From Nitrosopumilaceae archaeon (GTDB taxonomy: Archaea; Thermoproteota; Nitrososphaeria; Nitrososphaerales; Nitrosopumilaceae): a stretch of DNA of 64,000 bases. Of this stretch, positions 5,248 through 44,217 are shown piece after piece (within the stretch, counting starts at the first letter, position 1; each line of letters begins with the position of its first letter). The notes under the pieces were generated by a model. It was not told the origin of the DNA. It saw nothing but the letters and a program-made list of their open reading frames with translations, and ran no database searches. Position numbers and translations under genes: made by a program. Location: the NCBI GenBank assembly GCA_965203465.1, contig CBDBCR010000003.1:736001-800000 (forward strand), in the 5' to 3' direction.

Positions 5248-6138
5248 GGTACCGGCTCTCGTTCTGGATCATTGTCCGCCACTTGTCGGCCCCCTCGATG
5301 AAGATCTGGCTTCCTCGCCCGGAGTCCGCTTGAGGGACTGGTGCTTGCGGGCGTGGTTGTGGTTTACGCGGATGCCGCAGAACTCAGTCGTATGCTTGCC
5401 TTGGAGGTCCCTGAAGGTCTTTTCGCGGTCGCGTATCGTACCGTTGAGCCGCTCCATCCTGTTGTTGTTGTCCTTGCCCTTTTTGGGGCCGGTGATGTGT
5501 ATCTCGCGCACGTGCTCCGTCATGGGCATGACCTCCTCGGTGGCCACCCGGTACGAGTTGAGGCCGTCCGTTATCATCCTGGCCGGTATCTTGCCGGTCT
5601 GCTCCAGCGTATCCTTGAACAGTTTGGTCGCGTCGTGGCCCTCCTTGCGGTCGGCTAGGTCCGACGCGAGTCAGTACCGCGTGTCGTTGTCCGTCGAAGA
5701 GAACAGGTACATCAGGTCGCCGGCCACCTTCACGTAGAGCTCGTCCGCCCTGTAGTCGCTGCCGGTCTCGGGCCTTTGCCTGTCCATGTAGGCGGCGACA
5801 GGGCCGTACCGCTCGATCCACCGGAATATTGCCGACCTGTCGGTCTTGATTCCCTTTACCTCGAGGTTCTCGGCTATCTTGCCGGCCGAGAGGCCGGAAA
5901 AGTGCAGGCGCAGGCATTCGGTTATGACGGCCCTCGAGTACCGCCTGTACCTGAACCCGAACCTCGCGGAAAACTTGCGGCCGCAGTCACAGCACTTCAT
6001 CAGTTGGGTGACGCCGGGCTTGTTCTGGCGTATACCGTTCTTGCAGATGTGCCTTGAATTGCAATACTTGTACTTTGTCGGTGTGTCGTAGTTCTTTACC
6101 GTCTTTACGTATCGCTCCATGCCCCGTATACAGGCCAT
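5222..6138 (-). pseudogene. IS6-like DDE transposase, disrupted
   Basis: Zn-ribbon/HTH, YRADELYVK, ITDGLNSY and NNNRMERLNGTIRDRE motifs. In-frame TGA at 5671-5673 where the intact paralogue has W (DTRY*LA vs DTRFWLA). Further frameshifts near the 3' end. Confidence 0.88.
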
Positions 6139-11077: not shown

Positions 11078-12907
11078 TCAGAGCGTGGCCTGCGCGTGAC
11101 GCGGCTCCCTCTTCTGCATGGCCACCCGGGTGGTGTCCATGATGGACATTACCTTGGGGCGCACGCCTGCAAAGTACTCCCCGACGGTGTAGATTTGGAC
11201 CTTGGGGTACGTCCCGTACTCGGTATGGTACACCCCGGCCTTGGCCGCCGCCTCGTACATGCCCCGGGACGGCTTTTCGAGGCAGATGAAGATCCCGAAC
11301 GCCGCCTTGCCCTCCATCGTCCCGGCCAGCTCCCTGACCATGGACGGATGCAGGTTTTTGCCCCCTTTTACGGACACCACGACCGTCTCGTACTTTGGGT
11401 TGCCGTCCGGGTCCCGGACGAGGATCTGGCCGCTGCCGTCTACGCCCCCGTCGCCGGTCTGCTTTTGGTTGGGGTGCACGTTCGGTATCAGACTCACGGC
11501 CCACGTCTCGAACTGGAACTTGTTCTGCCGGGCCAGCATCCGCGCCGATTCCGGCGACTTTGGTATCCCGCGTATGTCAGGCCGTATCTTGAACTTGTCC
11601 GACAGCCTTTTCGCGACGAGGTTTACGGCCAGGTGCGTTATGTCGATCCCCACCCACGACCGGTTCAGCCTCTCGGCTTCCATTACCGTCGTACCGCACC
11701 CGCAGAACGGGTCGAGCACCGTGTCGTCCTCGTCCGAGGACGCGCGGATGATGCGCTCTAGCAGCGCCTCGGGCTTTTGCGTGGGGTACCCGACGCGCTC
11801 GTTTCCCTGGGCCGGCAGCACGTCGTCCCAAAAGTCCCCGACGTTCTCCCCCGCGTAGTCGTCCTCGTACACCTTGCGGATCAGTTTCCTGGAGCCGTCC
11901 GGCCTCTCGACGATCTCAAAGTTCCCCTTGCGGTACTCTTCCTCCAGCTTCTCCCGGGACAGCCGCCAGCCCGAGGGGTGCGGGTTGGAAAAGCCCTTCC
12001 ACGTATAGCACAGGTTGGGCCGCGCCCCCATCCCCGGCGTGCTCCAGATGTGCGAAGAGTCGTCCATCCACCGGCGCCCGTCGGGATCCTGCTTGCTGAA
12101 TTTTTTGCGCCTTTTTTCCTCGGTCAGCGGCGCCTTGGGGGGGTTGAACTTGGCGCGCCTCGCGTCCTTTGCGTAGAACAGGATGGTGTCGCGGTTCCGC
12201 CCGAACTTTTTTGCCGCGTGCTGGCTGCCTTTTTGGCCGGAGGTCGCCCGCTTCCACGTTATTTCGTTCCTGTAGTTTTTCGGGCCGAACACGGCGTCCA
12301 TCACGACTTTGAGGTAGTGGCTGGCCGTGGGGTCGCAGTGCACGTACACGCTGCCGCTCTTTTTGAGGACGCGGTGCAGTTCTAGCAACCGTATGGCCAT
12401 CGCGACCACGTACGCGAACAGGTCGTTCTTGCCCACCGCCTGCCTCAGGCCCAGGACCACCCCGCCTATGCGCGTCCCTGCCAGGTAGTCCAGCGTGGCC
12501 TCGGATTCGGCCGTCCACGACCACGTGTCTTGGAACGCGAGTATCTGGGCGCCGGACTTTTTGCCGTCCTTGTTTTTGAAGATCATGTTGTAGTCGGCGT
12601 TGGAGTTGAACGGCGGATCGAGATATATGAGGTCGACCGACTCGTCTCCGACGTGCTGCCTCAGTACGTCAAGGTTGTCGCCGTAGTACAGTAGTCTCGA
12701 CCTGGCGTCTCGACCTGGCGTCTCGACCTGGCGTCTCGACCTGGCGTCTCGACCTGGCGTCTCGACCTGGCGTCTCGACCTGGCGTCTCGACCTGGCGTC
12801 TCGACCTGGCGTCTCGACCGCTGTGATCGGTCAGCCCGTTCTTTGGCAAGTGCCAGAGGCCGTTTTCCGGACTCCGCGCCTACCCGCCGTCCGAGCCTGC
12901 CCTCCAA
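11078..12907 (-). CDS. Beta-class N6/N4 DNA methyltransferase fused to a C-terminal Mrr-like endonuclease domain
   Basis: YYGDNL, LIYLDPPFNS, GYPTQKPEALLERII, VLDPFCGCGTT. C-terminal FQFETWAV..GDGGVDG..VSVKGG. Start is uncertain (TTG 12907 chosen; the ORF is open to 13075). Confidence 0.9.
   Translation of the reverse strand: MEGRLGRRVGAESGKRPLALAKERADRSQRSRRQVETPGRDARSRRQVETPGRDARSRRQVETPGRDARSRLLYYGDNLDVLRQHVGDESVDLIYLDPPFNSNADYNMIFKNKDGKKSGAQILAFQDTWSWTAESEATLDYLAGTRIGGVVLGLRQAVGKNDLFAYVVAMAIRLLELHRVLKKSGSVYVHCDPTASHYLKVVMDAVFGPKNYRNEITWKRATSGQKGSQHAAKKFGRNRDTILFYAKDARRAKFNPPKAPLTEEKRRKKFSKQDPDGRRWMDDSSHIWSTPGMGARPNLCYTWKGFSNPHPSGWRLSREKLEEEYRKGNFEIVERPDGSRKLIRKVYEDDYAGENVGDFWDDVLPAQGNERVGYPTQKPEALLERIIRASSDEDDTVLDPFCGCGTTVMEAERLNRSWVGIDITHLAVNLVAKRLSDKFKIRPDIRGIPKSPESARMLARQNKFQFETWAVSLIPNVHPNQKQTGDGGVDGSGQILVRDPDGNPKYETVVVSVKGGKNLHPSMVRELAGTMEGKAAFGIFICLEKPSRGMYEAAAKAGVYHTEYGTYPKVQIYTVGEYFAGVRPKVMSIMDTTRVAMQKREPRHAQATL
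12694..12819 (+). repeat. 13-bp tandem repeat (GTCTCGACCTGGC), 9 copies plus 9 bp, at the 5' end of the MTase
   Basis: Counted directly. Perfect copies abut the first conserved motif (LLYYGDNL). Confidence 0.97.
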
Positions 12908-15670: not shown

Positions 15671-16486
15671 CCCGCCGCCCCCCCGCGCAGCCTGGCCTGC
15701 ACGCCACTCACCCGCCTCCTCGCTATCCGGGCGTACTTTGGGGACACGTCGCAACCTATGAAATTCCTGCCCCTGCTCTTTGCCATCTTGCACGTGGTGC
15801 CCGAGCCGCACATCGGATCCAAGACCAGGTCGCCTTCGTCGGTCCACGACAGTATGTGCTCCTCCGCGAGCCGCTCGGGGAACACGGCCGGGTGCTCGAA
15901 TGCGTACCTGTCGCTGGTGGTACCGCCGAGGCCGACCGCGTACTCCCAGATGTTGGTCCGCGTCTTGTATTCGTTGAGCCGCGCCTTCACCTTTCGGTTG
16001 AGCGCGTCGGGCCCCTTGTTTGCGACCACGCCCTCGACGCCGCTGCGCGCGGTCTTTTCGGTCAGCGGGTTGAACGTGCGCGGCTTTCCCTTCGAGAGGA
16101 CCAGCATGAACTCGTAGCAGTTGGTGTACGCGTTGCTGCGCATGAACGGGGTGTTCCTTTTTCTGTATATCATGACGTCGTGCACGGCGAAGCCGATCTT
16201 TTGGAAAAAGAGGGCCTGGCGGAAGCTCGTGAGGCTCCGGCCCCCGTTAATCCTGTCCCCTATCACCCATACGACGATCCCCCCCCCCCCGGGTCACGTC
16301 GTAGAGGGCCCGCGCCGTGCCTTCAAAGTCGAATTCGTACCCGTCGTAGTTGCGCAGGTCGTCGTACGGCGGGGAGGTCACGGTGAGGTCGACGGAGCCG
16401 GGCCTGACCCGCTCGCGCATGAACCTGACGCAGTCGCCCGTGTAGATCCTGTTCTGCGCGGCGTACCGGGCCGCCGTGTCGGCCAT
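15667..16486 (-). CDS. Beta-class N4/N6 DNA methyltransferase, frameshifted at a G12 tract
   Basis: IYTGDC and LTVTSPPYD before the tract; HPAVFPERLAE and VLDPMCGSGTT after it in another frame. Confidence 0.92.
16279..16290 (-). repeat. G12 homopolymer on the coding strand of the MTase
   Basis: C12 on the + strand. G11 or G14 restores ..DVTRGGGIVVWVIGD.. Confidence 0.95.
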
Positions 16487-22535: not shown

Positions 22536-23671
22536 ATGGCCGCGCTGAGGCGGGTAGGCGGCGGCGGAAAGCCGGTAAAGAGGGGCGGGTTGGTGCGGCA
22601 CAGCCCCTACCACTATTCGGTCCCGTCCAGCTCTACTAGGCGGAAGCACGCCGTGGTCAGATCGGGCGACTCGTGGCACTGCACGTGCCTTTCGTACGGC
22701 TACCGCCACGGCACCTGCAAGCACATCGCGGCAGTAAAGGCCGCGTTCGACACGGCAGAGCCGGCCGGCGAGCCGTCCGAGCCGGTGGTGGTGCGCCACA
22801 TAGAGCAGGGCACGTGCCCCAAATGCGGCTCGGCCAACTCGAAAAAGGACGGCGTGCGCTACAACAAAAAGTACAAGAACCAGAAATACAAGTGCCGCGA
22901 CTGCGGCAACTGTTTTTCCGGAAACGCCGGGATGGGCAACACCGTGCTTCCGCCAGAACACGTGATCGATGTCATGCAGCTGTCCGCCTCGGGCCTGTCG
23001 TACGCCAAGATAGCGGCGTTCCTAGCCGTAAAAGGCGTGCGCGTGTGCGTAAAAACCGCATGCAATACGGCCCACCGCTTCTCCGAAATCCTGATCGAAT
23101 ACTGCGATCAGCTGCGCCCCCGCGTCTCCGAGGCGCGTGGAGAAGCGACGAAAAGCACGTCAAGTCGCAGGACGGCCCGTCGTGGGCCCACACCGTGATG
23201 GACAACGAGACCAGGTTCGCGCTTGCGGCTATGCTGGCGCCCAAAAAAGGCGAAGGCGACATCTCGGAGGTGTTCGTGGCCGCGGCCGTGCGGGCCGGCA
23301 AGGTCCCCCACATGCTGATCTCGGACGCGTCCAAGTCTATACACGCGGCGTGGAAAAAGTGCTACCGGGCGCGCACCAAGCTGCAGAAGAGCACCGCGCA
23401 CGCGTCGAGCGTCCACCTTGCCGGCAACATGAACAACAACATGATGGAGAGGTTCAACCGCGAGCTCGGCGAGCGCGTGCACGGCGCGCGGTTCGTCTCG
23501 GAACGGGCGGTCGTCGCCATGGTGGAGCGCGCCCGCCTGTTCTACAACTTTTTCCACAAGCACTCGGGCCTGGGCGACAGGACGCCGGCCGAGGCGGCCG
23601 GCATCGTCGTCGAGGGCGACAAGTGGACCACGCTGCTGCGCAACGCGCACGCCTGGAAGCTGGCCGGGTGA
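22536..23671 (+). pseudogene. SWIM + Zn-ribbon IS6-like DDE transposase, frameshifted at ~23135
   Basis: WHCTC..CKH (SWIM), CPKCGS..YKCRDC, WRSDEK, LISD, NNNMMERFN, RTPAEAAGI; 2-bp insertion in GAGGCGCGTGG. Confidence 0.88.
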
Positions 23672-24217: not shown

Positions 24218-27200
24218 CTACCGTTTCTTCCGTTTGGCGATGGTATCCGAGAGGCGCTCGACGACCTCGTCCTTTCTGGATCCAAGACCCAGCACGTCAA
24301 ACACCGCCCCGTCCAGCCTGTCTTGATCCAGCGTCTTGCAGTACGACTTCCACGCCTTGGCCATTTGGTTCCTGCCCGCCGCGTCCAAGACCGCCATGTC
24401 GGGCACCTGCATCATCGCATAGTCTTCGACCTGCATCTTCAACGCGCCCCCTCCCATGGGGTGACCCACGACTTCCATGTGAAGCGAAAACATCGACGAC
24501 CGGATGTATGCGAGAAGAGGGTGCAGGTGCGTGCTGTCGCGGGCCTCGAAACAGACCCAGGTATCCAGCGCGCCGAACCTGGTGGTGCCGACTCCGTCTC
24601 CGTTTTCGACCACCTTGTGCCTGTCGTTGCTGATGGCGCTCAAAAACGCATCCGGCGTCCCCCGCGTGTTCATGTAAAACCAGAACCGCTTTTTCCTGAG
24701 AGTCGGCGATTCTGCCGGTATCTTGCCAGACCCGTCGGGGAACTTTCTGGTCTCGCCTTCCCTGATGTACCTGATCAGTCCTTTTGCGTCCTTGTCGCGC
24801 AGGAGATCGGCCATTGGCGAAGTCACTGCCAGAATGTACTTGCCCGCGTCGCTGTTGCGCACTTTTCCGCTTATCGTCGACTTGGGCAGCAGGACGGGAT
24901 GGAGGAACTTTTCGTGTATGCCGTACTCTTCAATTGTGTCGGCGCCAATCACAAAGTAGCTGTTAAATTTGGTAGATACGCCGCTGAACAACTTGCCCGT
25001 CTTGCCGAGCGCGGACATTTTCACCGCGGGTTCGGGTACGGCATCCATGAAGTGTACTGCCCACTTTTCGTCCCCGAACTCGTTCTGGCCCTTTTTCTTG
25101 TATGCAAGGTTTGAAAACAGGCCTCCCTCGTTCACGGCCGCGTATCTGACGACGTTGTTTCTGCTCCTCCCCTTCGTCAGTATCGTGATCACCGTCTTTA
25201 CGTCTATGTTCTTGAACACGTTGTAGTCCGGCTTTAGCATGACGTTGATGTCGCAGTTGTCCGCGAGCATTCTCTTGAGGGACTTGCCGTACGAGAAGCT
25301 CATCCAGCTGTCGCTCACGATGAACCCCAGCCTCCCGCCTGCCTTTAGCCAGTTCAGCGAATGGTAGTAAAAGTACGACGACTTGTCGGCCTTCTTGTCT
25401 ACGAGTCCCGCGCCTTTCAGCGTGTTGTTTCTGGGCAGCTGCATGCAGTCCTTGTCGGAGAGCCGCTCCTGCCTCACGTACGGCGGGTTTCCGATTACGA
25501 CATCAAAGCCGGGCATGACTCCCACCACGTGGTCCTTGTTGGCGCAGACCTGGGGAAAGCCGCGCTCGCCGGCCCAGTCGAACGGACGCTCGCCCCCGGC
25601 GCTGCGCGTCAGGATGGTGTTCCCCCGCCGTATGTTCTTCGACAGATCCGGAAGCTTTCTTCTGCTTCCCGCGATTTTGAAGAACATCGCAATCCTCGAT
25701 ATTTCGACGGACTGCTCGTTTATGTCGATGCCGAATATGCATTCCTCGATTATTTTTCTGGCCACGCTCTGTTCAAACGCCATCCCGAACGTCTCGTTTT
25801 TTGACGCGGCCCCCTTCTTGCCGCCCAATTCGACCTCGTACGCGCCCGCGTCTTTCTTCTGCTCCAGTATCTCGTTGTGCACGTCGAGCAACACGTCGAC
25901 GGCCTTCACCAAAAACGCGCCGGAGCCGCAAGCCGGATCGAGTATCCTTATCGACCTCAGTCTTTCCTCGAGTGCGCCCAATTCTCCGTCGTACTGCTCT
26001 ATGAGATCGCGGGTGCTCGTGGTGTCGGGTTTTCTCGCCAGGTACGGGATTATGGTCTGCCTGCACACATAGTCCGTGACGTACGGAGGCGTGTAGTACA
26101 CACCCATCTTCTTCCTCTCGGACGCGTCCGCATCCATGAGCCTGTCAAGATCGTCGAGCGACTGTTCGAATATGTGGCCGAGTATGTTTACGGTCAAATC
26201 TGACTCGAAATCATACCGCAGCATCGAAAGCACGCCGGTTATGATCGGGCTGAGGTTCTTTTCAAGTACGTCGATCTGATCTTTGGCGTACTTGAGTTCC
26301 TTTTCCGCGGTGTTCGGAAAGTACTCCTTGGGCCGCATGTCCAGGAACTGTGCTTTGACAGGCCACGACTTTGTGAACAGGCCTCCGTTGAACGCGAAAA
26401 CGTCCGGGTTTTTGTGTCCCTCCGCGAACCACCTGAACACCTTGTCCATGGCGTTGAAGACCACGCTGGTCGAGCCGTCGATCTTTTTGTTCCCGATGCT
26501 TTTCTTGATCTGATCGTACAGCAGGCGTCTGCCTACATAATCGTTGGATTCTGCGAACATCACGAAGATCAGGCGGTTCAAGAATGACTGCGCCTGGTCT
26601 ACGGCGGTGCTTCGGTCCACGCAACCCTCGAACTCTTTTACGAGCATGAGGCGCGTTCGGTGGAATATGTCGTAGAATTCCTCCTCGAGATCCTTCTCGA
26701 TCTCGTCCGCCGTCGCCCGGGTCGCTTCCAGCGAATTTTCGCCGATCATGTGCGCCTTTGAGAATATCCAGACGAACTCCTTCAGCCGGTATTCGCTGTC
26801 CCGTATGGACGAGAATTCGAACTCGTAATGCTGGCACCGGCCGACATCGTACTTGAACAGGATGAATTTGTCATAGTCGGTCACGATCCCGTACTTTGGT
26901 ATGATCTCCGACATGTACCACCACAGCTGGCCGACGGCTCCGTTCTTGTTCTGTGGCGTAGGCTTCCACAGGTCCGTGCCTTGTCCCTTGGCTTCTATGC
27001 AGACGGCTGTTTTTCCGTCCGGACCGGCAATCTGGAACTCGATGTCGTTCTGCTGGAACTTTACGTCGTCCGTCAGCGAATAACCCAGCACGCCCTCGAG
27101 TATGATTTTCTGGAAATTCGTGTAGTTCAACTCCTCCTTTTTCAACTTGCCCCTCTCGAGCATGTCCAGCCACTTGTCTTTGGCCTTCTTGGCGGCCCTG

Positions 27201-27277
27201 TCCAACGCGACGTTTTCAGACAGTTTTCTGATCGCCCTGCGATTCAGCAGCGTGTTTTGCGACGCCACCGCGATCAC
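24218..27277 (-). CDS. Type IIG (Eco57I-like) fused restriction-modification enzyme
   Basis: CIEAKG, ILGHIFEQSL, RKKMGVYYTP, ILDPACGSGAFL, DVVIGNPPYVRQE, C-terminal specificity region; intact, 1019 aa. Confidence 0.92.
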   Translation of the reverse strand: MIAVASQNTLLNRRAIRKLSENVALDRAAKKAKDKWLDMLERGKLKKEELNYTNFQKIILEGVLGYSLTDDVKFQQNDIEFQIAGPDGKTAVCIEAKGQGTDLWKPTPQNKNGAVGQLWWYMSEIIPKYGIVTDYDKFILFKYDVGRCQHYEFEFSSIRDSEYRLKEFVWIFSKAHMIGENSLEATRATADEIEKDLEEEFYDIFHRTRLMLVKEFEGCVDRSTAVDQAQSFLNRLIFVMFAESNDYVGRRLLYDQIKKSIGNKKIDGSTSVVFNAMDKVFRWFAEGHKNPDVFAFNGGLFTKSWPVKAQFLDMRPKEYFPNTAEKELKYAKDQIDVLEKNLSPIITGVLSMLRYDFESDLTVNILGHIFEQSLDDLDRLMDADASERKKMGVYYTPPYVTDYVCRQTIIPYLARKPDTTSTRDLIEQYDGELGALEERLRSIRILDPACGSGAFLVKAVDVLLDVHNEILEQKKDAGAYEVELGGKKGAASKNETFGMAFEQSVARKIIEECIFGIDINEQSVEISRIAMFFKIAGSRRKLPDLSKNIRRGNTILTRSAGGERPFDWAGERGFPQVCANKDHVVGVMPGFDVVIGNPPYVRQERLSDKDCMQLPRNNTLKGAGLVDKKADKSSYFYYHSLNWLKAGGRLGFIVSDSWMSFSYGKSLKRMLADNCDINVMLKPDYNVFKNIDVKTVITILTKGRSRNNVVRYAAVNEGGLFSNLAYKKKGQNEFGDEKWAVHFMDAVPEPAVKMSALGKTGKLFSGVSTKFNSYFVIGADTIEEYGIHEKFLHPVLLPKSTISGKVRNSDAGKYILAVTSPMADLLRDKDAKGLIRYIREGETRKFPDGSGKIPAESPTLRKKRFWFYMNTRGTPDAFLSAISNDRHKVVENGDGVGTTRFGALDTWVCFEARDSTHLHPLLAYIRSSMFSLHMEVVGHPMGGGALKMQVEDYAMMQVPDMAVLDAAGRNQMAKAWKSYCKTLDQDRLDGAVFDVLGLGSRKDEVVERLSDTIAKRKKR

Positions 27278-33957: not shown

Positions 33958-35220
33958 CTAATCACCCAGCAGGCACTGCACATGCATCTCCCCTATGTCC
34001 ATCTCGCTTTCCAAGAACGACTGCACCTCGCTCTCCTCGGATGGGCGCGTGATGAGCGAAGAGCCCGAATCGCCCCTGCTTATCAGCAGGAGTCGGTCTA
34101 TTCCCGATTGCCTCACGATTTCGGGGCTGTGCGTTGTGATGATGATCTGTTTGCTGGACGATGCGTCCTTCATCATGTCCACCATACCCGAAAGCAATGC
34201 AGGGTGCACGCTCCTTTCTGGTTCTTCGATCACGGCGAGCTGCGCGTCTTCGAAATACAGCGCCACGACCAGCGCTACCGCGTTGGTAGTGCCGTCCGAT
34301 ACCAAAGCTGCCGGCAGATGCTTGCCTTTGGAATAACTCTCCTCCGTCATAAACACCAAGGACTTGTCCACCGTGCTTTTGACGCCAAGGGACTTTACGA
34401 ACGGGAGTATGTCGGATGTCAAGTTGTTGAATTGTCTTCTTTTTTCAGCGTTTGACAGTATATCCCTCAGCACTAGCGGAAGGTTGGAACCGTCGGTCTC
34501 CAGTCCGAGCCTGCCCCCTATGGCGGAGGGCCGTTTTGCTAGTTTTGGGGCAAAGTCGTAGATTTCAAGCTGGCTGAAGAAATAGCCTACCCACGGGAAC
34601 ATGATATCTACGACTATGTGCGATTCCAAAATGGACTTGTTCTTGGCGGTCTTTGATCCGTATCCGTACACTGTCCTGTATAGATTCAGTTGTTTTTTGG
34701 ACACGATGTCGATGGGAAAGTCGGGCTCGAAGAACAGCTTGCCGTTTTCCGACTTTATGTTCAGTATGCCGTCTATGCGCCCTTTCTTGTTGGTGCCGTC
34801 TATGCGCCCTTTCTTGTTGGTGCCGGTCATGTAAAAACGCCACGCGTCGGACAGGATCTTGAACCCCGACCTCTGGCCCATCTCTATTTCGAAACTCCAT
34901 TTTACGTGCGTGTTGTGGAGCACGTATTGTTGGTTGGACAGATTTCCGGGGAGCGGTATTTCCGGAAAGTCTATTTCCAGCTCGATCGACATGCGGTTGT
35001 CGCCGTTGAAATTCCGCACGTATTCGATCCCTCCCTGGATTGCCAGCGCGTCGGCCAGTCCCCCGCGCATGTCTTTGAGAAACTGAAAGATCTGCCCAAA
35101 GTTGGACTTGCCCGAAGCGTTAGAGCCCACTAGCACATTGAATTCTTTGAACTCAACGTCCAAATCTACAAAGCTCTTGAAATTGTGCACCTTCAGCCGC
35201 TTCATGAACGCCTCGCGCAT
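33958..35220 (-). CDS. ABC/AAA_21-type ATPase, copy 1
   Basis: HNFKSF, GSNASGKSN (Walker A), VSDGT signature, IEEPE (Walker B), ITTHSP. Confidence 0.92.
   Translation of the reverse strand: MREAFMKRLKVHNFKSFVDLDVEFKEFNVLVGSNASGKSNFGQIFQFLKDMRGGLADALAIQGGIEYVRNFNGDNRMSIELEIDFPEIPLPGNLSNQQYVLHNTHVKWSFEIEMGQRSGFKILSDAWRFYMTGTNKKGRIDGTNKKGRIDGILNIKSENGKLFFEPDFPIDIVSKKQLNLYRTVYGYGSKTAKNKSILESHIVVDIMFPWVGYFFSQLEIYDFAPKLAKRPSAIGGRLGLETDGSNLPLVLRDILSNAEKRRQFNNLTSDILPFVKSLGVKSTVDKSLVFMTEESYSKGKHLPAALVSDGTTNAVALVVALYFEDAQLAVIEEPERSVHPALLSGMVDMMKDASSSKQIIITTHSPEIVRQSGIDRLLLISRGDSGSSLITRPSEESEVQSFLESEMDIGEMHVQCLLGD
34767..34825. repeat. 27-bp in-frame tandem duplication in the ATPase
   Basis: Encodes GTNKKGRID twice. 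Confidence 0.92.
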
Positions 35221-35587
35221 GAGGTGCCGGCCCGTCACTACAATTAATATCTATACCGCGATCCCGGATTCCGGCAAATCCTGGTGAGCCGGGGCCCGGT
35301 GCGGAGGTACGGCCCCGTCGATCGGGCGTTTTCACGCCGGCTGCGGCCGGATCCGGCCCCGGGCCCCAAGCGCCCGAATCCGCAGCTCTCCGCGGGGGAG
35401 TTCGCCCCCACGGTTTAAGTGAGGCGCGCAGAAAAGGCCGGCAGTGAAGGTCAAAGTAAACGTCAACGTCCTCCCCTTCGGGCACTACAGGACGGAGGAG
35501 GCGCAGTCCGAATCGACCGTCGAGATTGCCCCGACCCCCATAATAAAAGACTACACGTCGGGTTCTGTGTAATCAGCGAGACCCGGC

Positions 35588-36709
35588 CTAGCCCGCGTGG
35601 AGCCGGTGCAGGGCCGCGTTCTGGATCAGCGTCTTCCAGCGATCGGGCCCGTCTATGTCTATCAAGGCCGCGTCCGAGGGCGTCCGGCCGCCCAAGCCGC
35701 CGTGCTTTTTGACGCAGTTGTAGTGGGCCTGGAACCCCGGTATCAGCGGCGTGTGGAACTTCTTGAGGCCCCGGAAATTCACCTCGCGCTCCCGCACCGT
35801 CCCGTTGAGCCGTTCCATCTTGTTGTTGTTCATCTCTTTCCGCAGGTGGATGTACCGCCAGTGCTGGGTATCGGGGCCGAACACCCTGATGCTCGACTTC
35901 ATGTAGTTGGGCAGCCCATCGGTGACGAAGTGGGCCGGCGCCTTACCCAGCTTCCGCTTGGTGGCCTCCAGCAGGTTGTCCGCGTCGTGCTGGAACTTGG
36001 TCTCGGCCATCTCGGCGGCCAGCCAGAACCGCGTGTCGTCCTCCATGGAGCCGAACAGGTACTTTAGTTCGCCGGCTATCTTGATCCAGACCTCGTCGGC
36101 CCGGGCCATGGCCCGGTCGGAGGTGCGCGGCACCACGTCGTGCAGGTATTCGGATACGGACTTTGAATACTCGGCTACCCAGTTGTATATGGTCTTGTGT
36201 GATATTTTGACGCCCTCGGTCTCGAACTCGTCCGCTATATCCCGGACGCTCATGCCCTTGTAATACGTCCGGACGGCCCGGGTTATCGTCTTGGGGCGAA
36301 AGTGCTTCTTTTCGAACCCCGGGTTGTCTGTAAACCTGCGGCCGCAGTCGCCGCACTTGAGCAACTGCACCGGGCCGGCCTTGGTCTTGCGCGTGCCCTT
36401 CTTGGCTACGTTGCCCGAGTCGCAGAACTTGCACACTTGGCGGCCGGCCCTTTCCATGATCCGGAACGGCGCCCGCTTGAAGAGTTGGTTGCGGCAAAGC
36501 GCCCGCAACACAACCTTGATGTGCTTGCAGTCGGCCCCGCGGGTCCGGTGATCCGGGCACTCGCAGACCAGCCCCGAGCCGGTGCGCTTCACCTCGTACC
36601 TCTTGTCCGGGTCCGTCTGCGAGCGGACGCTGAACGTGTCCGGATCTGACTGGCCGGCCGCGCCGGCCTGCTTGAGCATCTCGACTGCGCGGGCGGTGCG
36701 GGCGTTCAT
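35588..36709 (-). CDS. IS6-like DDE transposase with N-terminal SWIM finger and Zn ribbon, intact
   Basis: CECPD..CKH, CKFC..CGDC, HTH (ISHKTIYNW), ARADEVW, FVTDGLPNY, NNNKMERLNG. Confidence 0.93.
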   Translation of the reverse strand: MNARTARAVEMLKQAGAAGQSDPDTFSVRSQTDPDKRYEVKRTGSGLVCECPDHRTRGADCKHIKVVLRALCRNQLFKRAPFRIMERAGRQVCKFCDSGNVAKKGTRKTKAGPVQLLKCGDCGRRFTDNPGFEKKHFRPKTITRAVRTYYKGMSVRDIADEFETEGVKISHKTIYNWVAEYSKSVSEYLHDVVPRTSDRAMARADEVWIKIAGELKYLFGSMEDDTRFWLAAEMAETKFQHDADNLLEATKRKLGKAPAHFVTDGLPNYMKSSIRVFGPDTQHWRYIHLRKEMNNNKMERLNGTVREREVNFRGLKKFHTPLIPGFQAHYNCVKKHGGLGGRTPSDAALIDIDGPDRWKTLIQNAALHRLHAG

Positions 36710-36721
36710 GCCTGTAGTCTA

Positions 36722-36770
36722 AGGCTAGTCTATTAAAACCTTTAGGGCGACGTATAGACTATTATAGCCT
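36722..36770. promoter_or_regulatory. Divergent promoter with inverted-repeat operator candidate
   Basis: TAGTCTAT (36726-33) and ATAGACTA (36754-61) flank TATTAAAA; outer AGGCTA/TAGCCT. Confidence 0.45.
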
Positions 36771-36788
36771 GCTCTGGAGGAGGGCGGC

Positions 36789-37046
36789 ATGGACAAGACG
36801 TCGCTGGTACAGGTCAACAAGAGCGACTCGCTGCGCACGACGGTGCCCGCGAGCATCGTGAAACTGCTCGATCTGCGCCAGGGCGATCGTGTAGAGTGGG
36901 ACGTGCTGCCGGACGGAAACAGGTTCGCCGTAAAGATCGAATTCGTAAAACCAAAGGACGCGCGAACCAAAGGACGCGCGAACCAAAGGACGCGCGAACC
37001 AAAACCGGTCAGGGCGCCGCGTTCGTCACGGCCGCGGCAATTCTGA
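36789..37046 (+). CDS. AbrB/MazE/SpoVT-like DNA-binding protein
   Basis: SLRTTVPASIVKLLDLRQGDRVEW; GGAGG Shine-Dalgarno upstream. Confidence 0.88.
   Translation: MDKTSLVQVNKSDSLRTTVPASIVKLLDLRQGDRVEWDVLPDGNRFAVKIEFVKPKDARTKGRANQRTREPKPVRAPRSSRPRQF
36949..37003 (+). repeat. 16-bp tandem repeat (AACCAAAGGACGCGCG), 3 copies plus 7 bp, in the abrB 3' end
   Basis: Counted directly. Confidence 0.93.
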
Positions 37047-37079
37047 CCGGCAATTAATTCTTGGCCGGGGGCGGCGCTC

Positions 37080-39896
37080 CTGACCACCAGCGAGCCGACG
37101 GCCAACGCGGCCCTGGCCGAGGTGCTCGACGGCCTGCGCCGGAACTGGTCGGTGAAGGGCGAGCAGATGGGGGGAGTCCTCCGGGGAGGCAAAAGGCCCG
37201 ATCTAATCGCGCTTGAGCAAGGCCGTTCTCCGATCTTAGTCGAAGTTGAATTCTCACCCGCGGCAACGCTGGAAAAAGACGCGCTCGCGCGCCTGCACAC
37301 CGTCACCAAGGACGGCCAAGAGGTGGCGGCCGTCGTGTCGGTCCGGCTTCCGGCACGGCTCAGAAAAGTCGGCGGCGAAAAACTCAGGAAAGAACTGCGC
37401 GCGGCGGCGGATCTGGAATACGCCGTGTACCAGCCCGGACGGTTCCCGAAAACCGGGTACGTCAAGGGCGGCGTCACAGACATCGCGCAAATTATCCAAA
37501 ATGTGTCGCTGCCCGCCGAAATAATCGGCGAATGGGTGAAAGAGATGAGTGGTGCGATAGAGAGCATCGCCAAACTGCTCGCCGGAAGCGGTAGGGACAC
37601 CAAGAAGAAGATAGCCGATCTTCTGTCGCTGAACGAAGGCAGACAGACCTGGCGCATGGCCGGGCTGATACTGTCCAACGCATTCGTGTTCCACAGCCAC
37701 ATAGCGGGCGAGCGCGGCATAAAGACTCTCCAAGAATTGATCGTCTTGGACACGGTGCCCACGGCCAGCTTGGTGGCCGAGTGGGGCAGGATACTCAAGA
37801 TCAACTACTACGCCATATTCGACGTGGCGCGCAGCATCATCACGTACGTGAAAGACGCGGACGCGGAGGACATCATACGGGTGCTGCTGGACACGACCGG
37901 CAAGATCAACGCGCGCGGCCTGTCCACGTCGACGGACATGTACGGCACGCTTATCCAAAAAATGATCGAGGACCGCAAGACGCTCGCCTCGTTCTACACC
38001 CTCCCAGAATCGGCCGCGCTACTGGCCGGCCTGGCCGTCCCGCCAGCAGGCTCCGACGTCTATTCCTCGCCCGAATCCATGAAAGAGTTCAGGTTCGGAG
38101 ACTTTGCGTGCGGGACGGGCGCGCTGCTGACCACGGCCTACAAGGTGCTGATCGCCAACTACGAGGCGGCCGGCAACGATATGCGGAAGATACACGATTC
38201 CATGATGGGTGGGGCCATATTCGGGTTCGACGTGCTGCCCAGCGCCGTCCACCTGACCGTATCGTCGCTGGCCGAGATATTCCCAAAAAAACTGTTCACG
38301 GAGACCAAGGTCGGGAAGCTCTTGTACGGAAGGCGCGACTCCGAGTTGCGTCTGGGTTCGCTGGATCTGATCTCCAAACAGAGCACTCTGGGTGGGGGAG
38401 GCGACTACGTGACCGGTACGGCATCGGACACGTTCTTCAGCCCGACCGTACCGGACGGCTATTTCTCGCTCGTCTTGATGAACCCGCCGTTCACGAGGAA
38501 CGCCAAAGGAGGGGCAGATCGTCACGCAATGTTCGCGTCGTTCGGCACGGACAGGGACGATCAGAGGAAAATGGCGGCAATGGAAAAGAAGCTGTTCAAA
38601 ACCACGTGCGCGCACGGCAACGCCGGAGCCGCGTCCAACTTCGTGGCCATCGCCGACAAGAAACTCAAGCCGGGCGGCGTGTTGGGCTTGGTGCTGCCGT
38701 CCACGATAGCGTGGGGTTCGTCGTGGAAGGCATGCAGGGATCTGCTGAAGGACGGCTACGAGGATCTGACGGTGGTCAGCATCGCCGCGTCCGACATATC
38801 CACCATGGCGTTTTCATACGATACGGACATGGGCGAGGTTCTGGTGGTGGCACGCAAACGCGAGCGTCCGGCCGACGGGCCTCCGCGCGGCCGGTTCGCA
38901 TCGTTGCGCAGGCGCCCGGAATCCGTGCTCAACTCAATCGAATTATGCAAGGACATACTCAACTCGAAACCGAACAGGCTCGACGGCGACAATTACGGAG
39001 GCACGCCGCTCAAGGCGGGCCGAGACGTACACGGAAGCGTGCTGGACTGCCCGCTTGACGATGAATGGTGGTGGCCAGTGGCCGTGCGGGATCAAAACCT
39101 GATCCAGTTCATGTACCGCCTGTACCGCGGACAGTTCGCGCTTCCGAATCCGTTGTGCGGATCCGGTTCGATTCCCATGACTAGGGCGGGAGCCAACTTC
39201 GGCTTGGTGGGAAGGGACATAGCGGACGGCAAAGACGACTGCAAACGCGCCCCCTTCACGAGTCATCCGTACGACACGGGCGCGGTATACCCCGTCTTGA
39301 TGAACAACGATTCAGACAAACAGACACACATGATGGTCAAGCCCGACTGCATGGCAATCCCGAAAACATGCGCCAAAAAAGAAGACGTGGTGAGGGTGGC
39401 CGCGGACGCCACGCGCCTGCATGTCAATAGCACGTGCAGATACACCAGCCAGCGCGTGTTGTTCCCGTATACGGCAAAACCCACGCTTGGTTCGTCCGTA
39501 TTCCCGTCATTCAACACAGCGCCGGAGCACGAGAAGGCCATGGCGGTCTGGGGCAACAGCACGCTTGGAATACTCTGTTTCTGGACGCATGCAGGCAAAC
39601 AGCAACTGGGCCGCGGAAGGGCCAGCAGAACGTCTATGGAAAACATGGCCGTGTTGAACGCGCCAAAACTGAAAAAAACAGCCTTGGCCAAACTCGACAG
39701 GATATTCGACAAATACTGCAAAAAGGAATTTCTGCCAATGAACCTTTGCTACAGGGACGAAAACAGGATGGCCATGGACGCCGAGATGCTCGCGGCCCTG
39801 GGCATCGACGAGCCCATAGACGATCTGCGGGTACGGTTCTGCCGCGAGCCGCTGGTGCGGAGCGGCCGGGAGGATCCGGAGCTGGACGCGCTGTAG
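37080..39896 (+). CDS. Type IIG-like fused REase-N6 MTase, cargo of transposon C
   Basis: RPDL..ILVEVEF nuclease-like N-terminus, LASFYT, DFACGTGALL, LMNPPF. Start is CTG 37080 or GTG 37122. Confidence 0.88.
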   Translation: MTTSEPTANAALAEVLDGLRRNWSVKGEQMGGVLRGGKRPDLIALEQGRSPILVEVEFSPAATLEKDALARLHTVTKDGQEVAAVVSVRLPARLRKVGGEKLRKELRAAADLEYAVYQPGRFPKTGYVKGGVTDIAQIIQNVSLPAEIIGEWVKEMSGAIESIAKLLAGSGRDTKKKIADLLSLNEGRQTWRMAGLILSNAFVFHSHIAGERGIKTLQELIVLDTVPTASLVAEWGRILKINYYAIFDVARSIITYVKDADAEDIIRVLLDTTGKINARGLSTSTDMYGTLIQKMIEDRKTLASFYTLPESAALLAGLAVPPAGSDVYSSPESMKEFRFGDFACGTGALLTTAYKVLIANYEAAGNDMRKIHDSMMGGAIFGFDVLPSAVHLTVSSLAEIFPKKLFTETKVGKLLYGRRDSELRLGSLDLISKQSTLGGGGDYVTGTASDTFFSPTVPDGYFSLVLMNPPFTRNAKGGADRHAMFASFGTDRDDQRKMAAMEKKLFKTTCAHGNAGAASNFVAIADKKLKPGGVLGLVLPSTIAWGSSWKACRDLLKDGYEDLTVVSIAASDISTMAFSYDTDMGEVLVVARKRERPADGPPRGRFASLRRRPESVLNSIELCKDILNSKPNRLDGDNYGGTPLKAGRDVHGSVLDCPLDDEWWWPVAVRDQNLIQFMYRLYRGQFALPNPLCGSGSIPMTRAGANFGLVGRDIADGKDDCKRAPFTSHPYDTGAVYPVLMNNDSDKQTHMMVKPDCMAIPKTCAKKEDVVRVAADATRLHVNSTCRYTSQRVLFPYTAKPTLGSSVFPSFNTAPEHEKAMAVWGNSTLGILCFWTHAGKQQLGRGRASRTSMENMAVLNAPKLKKTALAKLDRIFDKYCKKEFLPMNLCYRDENRMAMDAEMLAALGIDEPIDDLRVRFCREPLVRSGREDPELDAL

Positions 39897-40063
39897 GATG
39901 CCGGTCACGGGTCTCGCTGATTACACAGAACCACACGTCGATATCCGAATCGGTTACCCTGCAGTAGGCCGGCCTTTCCCCGCCTCCGGCCGCGCGCAGA
40001 ATCCGGGCGGCCAACGCCCCAAGCGGCTCGCCGGGCGCGCCGACCCCGGGCGTCCCGCGCGGC

Positions 40064-40770
40064 TCAGGCCTCCGGCCACCTGCGCCGGTAGCGCGTCACG
40101 TCCAGGCCGCCCAGCGTTATCTTGCCCCCCACACGAACGAGGCTCGGTACTTGCGGCTCATCCTCGCTATGCGGCCCGACTCCACGTGCTTTTGGACCTC
40201 CGAGTGCGGCATCACCAGAAAGTCGTTGCAGGCGCCGGAACGCACGACGAACGCATAGTACGCGCCCGGGAGGCCGAACTTTTCGTGCGCGCCGGGCGGG
40301 ATGAAAAACGAGCACTTGTCGCGCACCGGCACGGACGTCTTCACCTGGAAAAGGAAGCGCCTGCCCCCCTTTGCAGCGAAGACGTCAGTTTCCGCGTCGA
40401 CGGCGGCCACGCGGGCGTCGAACCCGTAAAAGAGCAGCTCGCTGGCCACCGAATGCTCGCCGGCCCTGCCGTTGAAGAGGATCCGGCCGGGCGCGTTGGA
40501 CGTCGGCCTTCCCGCGCAGCCGCGCGCGCCCGGAGGTCCCTGCTGGTCGAGCCCGAACCGCTCGCCGCGCCGGACGAATTCAGAGTCCGGGCCGCGCCGC
40601 CGCATGTCGCCCGAAAGGACCGCCTTCATGATCCGTTCCGGCGCCCGCGTCGTTTGGCCCGGATCCAAGAGCCCGCGCTGCACCGCCTTTTTGACGATCT
40701 CGGCAGCCGTAAGCAGCCTGTACCCGTCCGACAGCACCTCGATCGCCGATTTCCTGAAGGGCTGCGCCAC
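40064..40770 (-). pseudogene. HARE-HTH + PD-(D/E)XK paralogue 2, frameshifted near the 3' end at a G6 run
   Basis: High similarity to 4111-4878. G7 at 40125-40130 would restore ..KITLGGLDVTRYRRRWPEA. TATA box degenerate. Confidence 0.8.
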
Positions 40771-41003
40771 GGCGCGGCCGCGGGCACCCGGCATTCAAGT
40801 CGCCCCCGGAGCCTGGCGCAGCCCCAGCAGCGGCGCGCGGCAGGGCGCCTGCGGTCTCGACGATCCGCGGCAGGCAGGCGCGGCGGCCCCGCCTCCGGAA
40901 TGCGCGGGGCAGCGTCGATCAGCCCGCCGCCCTTCCGGGAAGTTTGGCCACGCAAAGCCGCAGATCAAGCATGTTTAAAAAACGGGGCGCGCGGACGCTC
41001 CGC

Positions 41004-42957: not shown

Positions 42958-44217
42958 GTGGCGGGTCCGTTCATCAAGCGCATAAGGGTGCAAAACTTCA
43001 AGAGCTTCGCAGACGCGGATCTGGAACTGGGCAGGTTCAACGTCATCGTCGGCGCCAACGCGGCCGGCAAGTCGAACTTGGTGCAGATCTTTAGGTTCCT
43101 GCGCGACATCCGGCGGGACGGGCTGGACAACGCCGTCTCCATGCAGGGCGGCCCGCAATACATACACAACCTGAGACTGGGCGACAACAGCACGTCGATC
43201 GAACTGGAGACCGCGCTGTCAAAGGGATTTCGCATCCCGGTCCCGACCAAGCACAAGGCATACAGCACGGGGGGGAAATGGCGCCTCGAATTCAAGACGG
43301 AGGGGCAAAAGATCGAGATAGTGGAGGATTCGTGCACGTTCCGCGTCTCCGACTGCGCCGAGCGGGATTTGGGCGACTTTGTGGGCGGCGCGGACGGGCA
43401 GCAGGCGGACGATCAAAAGAGCGGGCGCCGCGAAGGAAGCGTCAAAGTAACGCGCAACGGCGGCCTGTGCTTTGACGTGGATTTTGACGCGGATCTCAGA
43501 GAGGCGCTTGACAACTATACGACCAAATCGCACGCCAGAAAAAACGAGCTGCTCGTAGAATCCGGGCTTTTGGGCCACCTCTTTCCGCGGATCTTTTACT
43601 TTGAGGACATCGGCACGTACGACTTCGACTCCAAACGCGCCGGTGGATCCGTCCCGGTGAAGGGAACGCCGGAGCTGGAAGACGACGGCTCCAACCTGGC
43701 CGTGGTGCTAAAGGACATACTTTCAAACGACGCCGGCAGAAAGTCTCTGCACGCCGTAGCCTCCGACCTGCTGCCGTTTGTAAAGTCCATCGGCGTCAAG
43801 GATCTGGTGAAATCGGTCATGTTTACCCTCACCGAAGAACGCATCGAAAAGACGCCCCTGCCGTCCCCCCTGCTCTCCGACGGAACCGTCAACGCGGTGG
43901 CCCTGATCGTCGCGCTGTATTTCGAGGAGATGCCGGTAGTGGTGATAGAAGAGCCCGAAAAGAGCATGCACCCCTCCCTGATGGCCAGGACGGTGGATAT
44001 GATGAAGGACGCCTCCAGAAACAGCCAGATCATAGTGACCACGCACAGCCCGGAGCTGGTCCGTTACGCAGGACTGGACAGCCTGTACTCGATCAAGAGG
44101 GGAGAGGACGGGTCTTCAGAGGTCAGCCGCCCGTCGACGAACAAAGAGATCAAAAAGTTCCTGGAAAACGACATGGGCATAGAGGAGATGCATGTGCAGA
44201 ACATGTTCGACTGGTAA
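42958..44217 (+). CDS. ABC/AAA_21-type ATPase, copy 2
   Basis: QNFKSF, GANAAGKSN, LSDGT, IEEPE, VTTHSP. Confidence 0.92.
   Translation: MAGPFIKRIRVQNFKSFADADLELGRFNVIVGANAAGKSNLVQIFRFLRDIRRDGLDNAVSMQGGPQYIHNLRLGDNSTSIELETALSKGFRIPVPTKHKAYSTGGKWRLEFKTEGQKIEIVEDSCTFRVSDCAERDLGDFVGGADGQQADDQKSGRREGSVKVTRNGGLCFDVDFDADLREALDNYTTKSHARKNELLVESGLLGHLFPRIFYFEDIGTYDFDSKRAGGSVPVKGTPELEDDGSNLAVVLKDILSNDAGRKSLHAVASDLLPFVKSIGVKDLVKSVMFTLTEERIEKTPLPSPLLSDGTVNAVALIVALYFEEMPVVVIEEPEKSMHPSLMARTVDMMKDASRNSQIIVTTHSPELVRYAGLDSLYSIKRGEDGSSEVSRPSTNKEIKKFLENDMGIEEMHVQNMFDW

Follow-up and report, generated by a model that had tools for sequence, protein, structure and literature searches.

The stretch of DNA analysed here, 64,000 nucleotides (nt) from a genome of the Nitrosopumilaceae (positions 736,001 to 800,000 of contig CBDBCR010000003.1, assembly GCA_965203465.1; hereafter the window), holds three neighbouring genes, coding for a transposase, a small AbrB-like protein and a large putative restriction-modification (R-M) enzyme, which are enclosed together by one pair of inverted repeats. 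The question raised by this locus is whether the three genes form a single transposon that carries an R-M gene along with it, or whether a short insertion sequence (IS) happens to lie beside a resident R-M gene. The evidence makes it very probable that window 35561-39932 is a self-contained and recently mobile unit transposon, of the kind termed 'transporter IS' (tIS), on an IS6-type backbone.

Inspection of the sequence placed the transposon at window 35561-39932, with 4372 bp enclosed and the three genes inside. It ends on terminal inverted repeats of 25 nt, GGTTCTGTGTAATCAGCGAGACCCG, which are of the GGTTCTGT type and identical at both ends; the repeat adjoining the 3' end of the transposase gene (35561..35585, + strand) matches the opposite end perfectly, and the repeat at the cargo end (39908..39932, - strand) is the exact reverse complement of it. 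Directly outside lie the left (35553..35560) and right (39933..39940) copies of an 8-bp target-site duplication, ACACGTCG. Perfect 25-bp repeats and an 8-bp duplication around 4372 bp (35553-39940) had been described in the first-pass annotation of this DNA and are borne out. The 25-mer has two matches in the window, a number that none of 100 dinucleotide shuffles reached (0/100 with two or more, mean 0.00), and only these two copies are present in the 2.26-Mb genome of 65% G+C, in which the element is single-copy; no further copies or solo ends were found in the genome at 13/16 or better, except for chance-level matches. The same annotation had pointed out that a repeat directly after abrB would shrink the IS to about 1.5 kb, and a scan of the interior of the element found no such inner repeat, the best match being 15/25 for the full 25-mer and 10/12 for its first 12 nt, the latter within the transposase gene.

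The tips of the repeats (GGTTCTGTGTAATC... at both ends) start with GG and contain CTGT, which fits the description of IS6 repeats in the accessible part of a 2021 review (PMC7986276), and the 8-bp duplication, with ACACGTCG on each side, is that of the IS6 family as well. In its size the element departs from the family, since IS6 members are compact single-gene elements (about 0.7-0.9 kb, up to about 1.7 kb) and this one has 4372 bp and three genes.

The mobility of the whole unit was addressed with Logan contigs of four public metagenome runs, aligned at 90% likeness or more; parts lacking coverage and the numerous small joints of low likeness were left out of account. A contig of run X13 (study P4) joins position 35560 to 29 letters, of which 26 (26/29) are those of window 39941-39969, and continues in the right flank to 40365; it represents an empty site in which the octamer ACACGTCG is present once. 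In run X1 (study P1) a contig of 1102 nt covers 35433-35559, followed by sequence resembling the right flank (25/29). This run also has the element itself, in contig pieces over 35679-39932 with 12, 1 and 2 differing letters, and past 39932 the element contig enters a flank that is unrelated to the window's; run X3 has contigs that extend 1162 nt ahead of 35560 and 278 nt past 39932 in sequence likewise lying off the window's flanks, so that in both runs contigs reach the very end of the element at 39932. Since the site is empty in relatives and the element stands with its cargo beside other flanks, it has moved recently as one unit. An interior free of repeats, empty-site contigs without the whole unit and the whole unit beside other flanks are together what is expected of a transporter IS, and the earlier proposal of a self-contained transporter-type element, recently inserted in one event, is supported by the empty sites of X13 and X1 and by the other flanks in X1 and X3. 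An empty site with one ACACGTCG had been suggested as something to look for in relatives, and contigs from two studies show it; relatives holding the R-M gene at this locus without the transposase had been named as contrary evidence, and the locus is empty instead (X13 joint 35560-39941; X1 loose end 35559). The left flank (1653 bp) was compared with 200 further genomes of the host's family, of which 1 matched it at the DNA level, over a stretch of 117 bp only, and the same-genus genome G003 contains no close copy of the element, its best transposases being 54-55% identical and associated with other repeats.

The transposase gene (373 amino acids (aa), 35588..36709, - strand) is intact, reads outward and stops 2 bp from the repeat. 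Its product combines an IS6/IS240-type DDE domain, a helix-turn-helix (HTH), a zinc ribbon and a SWIM-type motif, and scores 40.4 bits with Pfam DDE_Tnp_IS240 (cutoff 27). Across 17 aligned homologs, the catalytic residues D205, D264 and E299 (DDE) together with R306 and the zinc-ribbon cysteines C93, C96, C119 and C122 are invariant, and C49, C51, C61 and H63 of the SWIM-type CxC..CxH motif are nearly so. An intact transposase with SWIM, zinc-ribbon, HTH and DDE parts, as the first-pass annotation had it, is thereby confirmed at the level of motifs, though the Pfam scan of the protein reported no SWIM domain. Among PLSDB plasmids the listed matches with a named transposase family are all IS6 (IS6100, IS240, IS26), at 24-31% identity and E 1e-7 to 1e-12, and at least 713 homologs were found at E 1e-10 or better, one of which is named by NCBI 'IS6 family transposase [Nitrosopumilus ureiphilus]'; a 91% identical transposase (P0001) is also known. 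Judged by its sequence, the transposase is a distant member of the IS6 family. A search of the IMG/VR viral contigs gave no relative of it, a result that does not speak against carriage by a virus or plasmid.

The window also contains two decayed relatives of the transposase gene, at 5284-6072 (-) and 22581-23659 (+), one of them interrupted by an in-frame TGA and the other broken up over two frames, and neither was seen to be enclosed by a pair of repeats. Elsewhere in the genome (G000:C3:932610-935210) two partial related transposase genes stand inverted to each other, flanked by a perfect 311-nt inverted repeat, an arrangement that is possibly the product of an inversion or of intramolecular transposition.

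Beyond this genome, a search with the transposase profile gave matches in 79 of 200 further genomes from the host's family, distributed over 20 of 27 genera (76/197 without three unpublished genomes). From one-genome-per-species contigs 80 loci were obtained, and the 48 of Nitrosopumilaceae type were scanned with a motif-based repeat finder, which revealed in 28 of them GGTTCTGT-type repeat pairs enclosing 1855-7034 bp. Around these 28 the duplication is perfect (8/8) in 19 cases, 7/8 in 2 and 4/8 or lower in 7. The Bathyarchaeia-type and other distant loci (L057, L059-L071, L074-L076, L078-L085, L087-L089, L091-L094), left out of the 48, gave no convincing GGTTCTGT-type repeats with a general finder; L047 and L072, for which the general finder gave long repeats (5199 and 5422 bp) outside the motif, are not counted. 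The element belongs to a family of unit transposons spread through the Nitrosopumilaceae. The layout for which the first-pass annotation knew no described archaeal family is thus real, but it is not unique to this locus, being that of a large family.

Two relatives lie in the same genome. The second element (4435 bp, G000:C3:312218-316652; L013 1019-5453) has 38-nt repeats GG(T/C)ACTGTTGCGAA... with 1 mismatch, close to the IS26 repeat, and the duplication GGGCAGGG. Its transposase is 43% identical to that of the window and is without the SWIM part, its divergent AbrB-like gene scores 29.5 bits with PF04014, and its N6_N4 methylase is split into two open reading frames (ORFs; profile positions 1-121 and 159-220), accompanied by a restriction-like ORF of 435 aa, homologous to the ORF beside the methylase in L019, and by an ORF of 85 aa; PADLOC gave no match for the 435-aa ORF. 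A tRNA at the end of this element had been suspected from a T-arm-like string, and ARAGORN found none. The other relative is plain and free of cargo (1507 bp, G000:C3:897039-898545, within L014); it has 24-nt repeats GATTCCGAC... / GATTCCGACAAATCC..., with AGGCCGCC as its 8-bp duplication, and its transposase shares 36% identity with that of the window. A degenerate copy of this relative lies at C3:499301-500781. A further element, of 3294 bp (L115 6125-9418), has the duplication TGTTTTAG and a 41%-identical transposase and is situated 3.4 kb from another member on the same contig.

A census of the cargo was made over the 28 related elements and the two of this genome (n=30). DNA methyltransferase or R-M genes are carried by 19 of the 30. 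In many of them the methylase is of the N6_N4 type. Its partner is CfrBI (L024), BglII (L051), HNH (L030) or Endonuclease VII-like (L054) in some elements and unassigned in others (L019, L032, L038 and the second element); in L023, L025, L049 and L053 the methylase forms part of a larger fusion protein, and in L041 it stands alone. Among the other R-M cargo are type I HsdM and HsdS (L021), an Eco57I/MmeI-like enzyme (L022) and an EcoRI-type methylase with GmrSD-type nucleases (L027, and likewise L031 by its 73-78% identity to L027). The remaining 11 hold a NurA nuclease (L020), a beta-propeller/HYR protein (L028), single unassigned genes (L040, L046, L073) or, in six cases, small ORFs only. 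In the 7034-bp member (L033 2173-9206) an MmeI-type cargo is split by another IS (DDE_Tnp_4), and the elements are nested.

The interior of these elements has a common plan. In every member the transposase reads into one of the repeats, and in most a small gene is located just upstream of the transposase on the opposite strand. Three unrelated classes of this small gene were found: AbrB-like (class a, 6 elements), a 'PKWKKD..IPKPI' class (b, 6) and a 'KGKxYLYY..YCG' class (c, 8). Pfam gave nothing on the class b genes and sub-threshold or marginal Arm, AP2 and SSV D-335-like hints on class c; a jackhmmer search with the AbrB-like protein of the window against the cargo ORFs reached 6 of the 30 elements only. 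Homologs occupy the same position in 5 other elements. L027 and L030, both from one genome, are 96% identical from the tnp start codon to the end and 89% identical over the first 122 nt of the other end, and share nothing between that 122-nt end and the tnp start. In the transposase tree, L022/L023 (support 100/100), L046/L054 (96/92) and L027/L030 (98/83) are sisters that differ in small-gene class and in cargo. Since sister transposases are accompanied by different small genes and different cargo, the interior acts as a slot whose contents can be exchanged, the small gene moving together with the cargo. Located between the cargo-side end and the tnp start, this slot holds one small DNA-binding gene and an exchangeable cargo, most often R-M.

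We propose tentatively, and as a possibility that falls somewhat short of probable, that the family may act as an IS6-derived 'defence shuttle', in which R-M modules with their own controller would be swapped into a fixed slot (the cargo-side repeat plus ~100 nt to the tnp start), addiction would stabilise the transposon, and the controller would couple the expression of tnp and R-M genes in a naive cell. If true, such a shuttle would account for the spread and accumulation of R-M genes in ammonia-oxidizing archaea, including sponge symbionts.

In the window the slot is occupied at its tnp side by the AbrB-like gene (36789..37046, + strand), which is divergent from tnp and codes for a small DNA-binding protein of 85 aa with the AbrB/MazE (SpoVT-AbrB) fold; residues 13-43 score 28.9 bits with the Pfam family MazE_antitoxin (PF04014, cutoff 24.7), in agreement with the AbrB/MazE/SpoVT profile, and PADLOC gave no match for the gene or for the 225-aa neighbour. 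The divergent AbrB-like gene of the first-pass annotation is therefore present, but as a part of the element it has to be seen as one of three interchangeable small DNA-binding genes at that position. The 3' tail of the gene contains 3.4 copies of a 16-bp tandem repeat, AACCAAAGGACGCGCG (36949..37003, + strand), which codes for the basic C-terminal tail of the protein, and related AbrB-like proteins end about where this repeat begins. All three reading frames through 36949-37003 are open and basic. The contigs of all four metagenome runs break at 36974-36978, which may reflect only the tandem repeat.

The divergent intergenic region between tnp and the AbrB-like gene (79 bp, 36710..36788) has a 7-mer in three copies, two as TAGTCTA (36715-36721, 36726-36732) and one as TAGACTA (36755-36761); three non-overlapping copies of any 7-mer, in either orientation, were reached by 13 of 20000 mononucleotide shuffles of the region. 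These heptamers are candidate operator sites. Judging from the anatomy of the region, the AbrB-fold protein most likely binds the three sites, which would act as operators, and it would thereby control the divergent promoters of the transposase and possibly of the downstream cargo.

The strongest competitor to this regulatory role is that the AbrB-like protein is part of the cargo and not a regulator of transposition, controlling the R-M gene in the manner of a C protein or serving as an antitoxin-like partner, which is possible although doubtful. The gene lies directly upstream of the enzyme gene, on the same strand and in the same frame, its Pfam family is an antitoxin DNA-binding fold, and the small gene has been exchanged together with the cargo: sister transposases have different classes (L022 with c against L023 with b, L046 with c against L054 with a), and the homology of L027 and L030 begins exactly at the tnp start codon. 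On the other hand a small gene of one of the three classes adjoins tnp also in elements without R-M cargo (L015, L040, L046, L048, L055, L073), its place is always immediately next to tnp and its orientation divergent, and no toxin partner is present beside the AbrB-like gene. The roles of transposition regulator and cargo controller are not exclusive of each other.

The cargo of the element is a single-chain enzyme with methylase and recognition domains and a putative nuclease domain, read from an open frame at 37047..39896 (+ strand), which is open for 949 codons and of which the ORF 37122-39896, starting with GTG at 37122, codes for 924 aa; its stop is 11 bp from the cargo-side repeat. The order of domains is a putative N-terminal PD-(D/E)xK-type nuclease, a helical domain, a gamma-class N6-adenine methyltransferase with the motif NPPF and a C-terminal target-recognition domain. 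In an alignment of 29 homologs, down to 35% identity, D52, E66 and E68 of the PD..ExE motif are invariant, as are N479, P480 and P481 of NPPF, and F482 is nearly so (at least 90% of rows), likewise D352..G356.G358. In sequence libraries, Pfam Eco57I reached 19.9 bits (cutoff 25.3), N6_Mtase was also below the Pfam cutoff, the PADLOC matches were weak and a PDB sequence search gave only marginal matches to BrxX/PglX.

The AlphaFold (AF2) model of the enzyme (pLDDT 86.3, pTM 0.87) has as its top Foldseek match over the whole chain the type IIG enzyme BpuSI (E 3.5e-20). VIA structure comparison gave the methylase CamA (Z 24.9 over model residues 293-922) and the type IIL enzyme DrdV (Z 20.5 over 6-913); structural matches to CamA, M.TaqI and HsdM agree with a gamma-class N6-adenine methyltransferase, and the alignments with CamA (293-922), M.TaqI (315-876) and DrdV (6-913) extend over the target-recognition domain. 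The N-terminal 161 residues, modelled alone (pLDDT 83.2), match in an all-against-representatives search almost nothing but PD-(D/E)xK nucleases, headed by TT1808 (Z 9.1), the BpuSI nuclease domain (Z 9.0), Hjc (Z 7.7), an HsdR fragment (Z 7.5) and the N-terminus of DrdV (Z 7.3). By its fold and conserved motifs we read the cargo as a type IIG/IIL-like R-M enzyme of predicted activity. The type IIG-like enzyme of ~930 aa in the first-pass annotation holds in its size of 924 aa, its fold and its motifs; what it had not foreseen is a conserved N-terminus without a canonical start codon. Conserved N-terminal residues (LLTTSEPT...) can be followed from about 37077, upstream of the first canonical start, GTG 37122. 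The AbrB-like and enzyme ORFs are in the same frame, separated by one TGA (37044), and the window has CTG at 37080 where the relative P0130 has ATG; in the relatives P0129 and P0130 the start codon is an ATG, located at this point or earlier.

The enzyme is one of a family, mostly unannotated and found in both archaea and bacteria, that numbers at least 1100 proteins with lengths of about 960 aa; copies at 99% and 89% identity (P0122, P0123) are also 924 aa long. Homologs of the cargo gene were found by tblastn in 4 relatives, at 26-51% identity and at places other than this locus, and within about 6 kb of them no transposase or repeat pair was seen in the examined stretches of 4-16 kb. Because these homologs stand without transposase or repeats nearby, the cargo gene was captured by the element. 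A GGAACTGT string in L107 was considered and proved to be a chance match. A stand-alone frame, open over 245 codons, lies elsewhere in the genome (G000:C1:717641-718270) and is 47% identical to residues 707-921 of the cargo enzyme, the C-terminal recognition-domain part.

An unlikely alternative is that, in an element that is itself real, the cargo is no active restriction enzyme but an orphan or regulatory methyltransferase, or a gene without a start, that is carried neutrally or for epigenetic effects. The invariance of D52, E66 and E68 in 29 homologs down to 35% identity argues otherwise, as do the best matches of the N-terminal domain, which are almost all PD-(D/E)xK nucleases and include its equivalents in BpuSI and DrdV, the rank of BpuSI as the top Foldseek match for the whole chain, and the 949-codon open frame; the intact 924-aa copies at 99% and 89% identity argue for selection. 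An orphan methylase would account for the sequence libraries detecting only the methylase part (Eco57I below the cutoff in Pfam, weak matches in PADLOC), for the best whole-domain structural match being to the orphan methylase CamA, for the homolog in G005 that is without the PD..ExE motif and for the methylase of the second element being in two pieces; the missing canonical start before a conserved N-terminus, where P0129 and P0130 have ATG, would suit a start-less gene.

With the cargo taken as a predicted R-M enzyme, a course of events can be outlined for the unit transposon from what is established for the IS6 family. The DDE transposase would bind both 25-nt GGTTCTGT repeats and insert the 4372-bp unit through an 8-bp staggered cut, and replicative cointegrate formation would be followed by resolution through host homologous recombination between the two copies, as the accessible part of PMC7986276 describes for the family. 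Because both repeats bracket the cargo, each event would carry it along with no need for a further copy of the IS. The R-M cargo would protect the host against foreign DNA and, to judge from its place inside the element, might stabilise the element by post-segregational killing.

Movement by conservative cut-and-paste or another non-IS6 pathway, and not through replicative cointegrates, is a more improbable alternative still: a single copy in the genome would suit it, as would a transposase distant from the studied IS6 enzymes (24-31% identity) with extra SWIM and zinc-ribbon domains, and the clean 8-bp duplications of most family members are given by both pathways, but the catalytic domain, the GG..CTGT repeat tips and the 8-bp duplication are of IS6 type, one genome holds several near-identical backbones, and the lack of a matching duplication in 7 of the 28 related elements is what intramolecular events of IS6 type, or copies recombining with each other, would be expected to leave. 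That the true mobile unit should be an IS of 1.5-1.9 kb (tnp and abrB) beside a resident R-M gene, the far repeat being a relic or due to chance, is hardly credible and already largely refuted, for although IS6 members normally stay below 1 kb, those with N-terminal extensions reaching up to about 1.7 kb (accessible part of PMC7986276), and although minimal family members of 1855-1970 bp (L015, L018, L034) and the plain 1507-bp relative with its 8-bp duplication exist, no repeat follows abrB or lies elsewhere in the interior, the outer repeats are identical over 25 nt with the same octamer outside both, the empty-site contigs are without the entire 4372 bp and not merely 1.5 kb, the element stands with its cargo beside other flanks in X1 and X3, and 19 of the 28 related repeat-paired elements show a perfect 8-bp duplication around the whole unit.

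Several points count against a recently mobile IS6-type unit transposon with R-M cargo. The mobility data are at the level of contigs, the empty sites coming from metagenome contigs at 90% likeness or more, and the shorter (left) side of the X13 joint has 28 letters, a length that is often unreliable. The transposase is only 24-31% identical to bacterial IS6 transposases and reaches 122.5 bits with the NCBIfam IS6 equivalog, just under the cutoff of 125. A matching duplication is absent (4/8 or less) from 7 of the 28 related elements. The element is single-copy, with neither a cointegrate nor a duplicate of it in evidence, and the replicative pathway is an assumption carried over from the family. 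A preference of the elements for R-M genes is an impression from counts, and the genome has about 12 PF01555 and 5 PF02384 loci with only 2 methylase genes in intact elements. In the transposase tree the regulator goes along with the cargo and not with the transposase, which weakens its description as a transposase regulator. As to the enzyme, the fold matches of the N-terminal domain are middling (Z 7-9, Foldseek best E 0.011) and the domain is without lysine at the ExK position; no ATG, GTG or TTG is found between the abrB stop (TGA 37044) and GTG 37122, and translation beginning at GTG 37122 would cost the nuclease domain the greater part of its first helix.

The site of insertion is intergenic and falls within a defence island. 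To the left of the element an AAA ATPase (AAA_21/AAA_15), HEC-01A/AriA-like according to PADLOC, is encoded at 33958-35238, and to the right follow a HARE-HTH protein (40117-40794) and a second AAA_21/AAA_15 ATPase that PADLOC also finds HEC-01A/AriA-like (42958-44217). An MmeI/Eco57I-like enzyme of 1019 aa is encoded at 24218-27277, adjoining the decayed transposase at 22581-23659, and further matches to N6_N4 methylase are located at about window 11618-12637 and 15718-16281. In the ATPase gene a perfect 27-bp tandem duplication (window 34767-34820) doubles nine residues (GTNKKGRID twice).

With respect to earlier work, the accessible part of the review PMC7986276 counts about 160 IS6 members in ISfinder in 2020, names the tIS concept, lets IS6 repeats start with GG and contain a cTGTt motif, and gives ISDsp3 as the only IS6 member with a passenger gene, cargo otherwise moving between two direct copies. 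According to the text available of a 2019 survey (PMC6563490), thaumarchaeal IS have 1 or 2 genes and passenger-gene transposons were not detected in archaea, and the available portions of PMC13343696 and PMC12988326 do not mention cargo-bearing IS6 elements. R-M genes and transposases are both enriched in sponge-associated Thaumarchaeota, with no physical link drawn between them in the accessible parts of PMC9289680 and PMC7848895. No description of such a cargo-bearing family was found in a literature search that did not extend to ISfinder, and the supplementary IS tables of PMC6563490 may list members; nor did the search find a tIS family devoted to R-M genes or an archaeal tIS. This widespread family of cargo-carrying elements is thus apparently undescribed.

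An IS6-type backbone with its cargo inside a single unit offers a testable vehicle for the patchy distribution of R-M genes in ammonia-oxidizing archaea and for the joint enrichment of transposases and R-M genes in sponge-associated Thaumarchaeota. The finding also points to a large unannotated family of nuclease-methylase proteins of about 960 aa. Archaeal transposons that are compact and have defined ends are possible starting points for genetic tools, of which none is known in this archaeal group.

Comparing the cargo with known enzymes, the predicted domain order, beginning with the putative nuclease, is the same as in the type IIG/IIL enzymes BpuSI, MmeI and DrdV, and the methylase and recognition domains match those of the orphan methylase CamA (Z 24.9), whereas the sequence identity is only 10-16% and the catalytic motif is D..ExE and not D..ExK; no MmeI-specific Pfam domains were detected in the cargo enzyme.

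The best-known activity of IS6 elements is the transfer of resistance genes in the form of two-copy pseudo-compound transposons. With IS26, IS257, IS6100 and IS240 the element shares the DDE transposase of IS240/IS6 Pfam type, the GG..CTGT tips and the 8-bp duplication, but it has 4.4 kb and three genes where these have 0.7-0.9 kb and one, its cargo lies inside a single unit and not between two directly repeated copies, its transposase has an N-terminal SWIM-type motif together with a zinc ribbon, and its host is a thaumarchaeon. A close counterpart, ISDsp3 of Dehalococcoides (IS6 clade i), is likewise of IS6 type, with a long transposase (zinc finger and an extra N-terminal domain) and a passenger inside the repeats; going by its description in the accessible part of PMC7986276, it is single-copy, has one hypothetical passenger and measures about 1.7 kb, whereas the family described here carries 1-5 kb of exchangeable cargo, mostly R-M, together with a divergent small DNA-binding gene. 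With transporter IS and unit transposons in general it has in common passengers unrelated to transposition, one repeat pair, one transposase and a target duplication, and it differs from the Tn3-type unit transposons in being without a resolvase. All this places the element more fittingly with transporter IS or unit transposons related to IS6 than with the classical IS.

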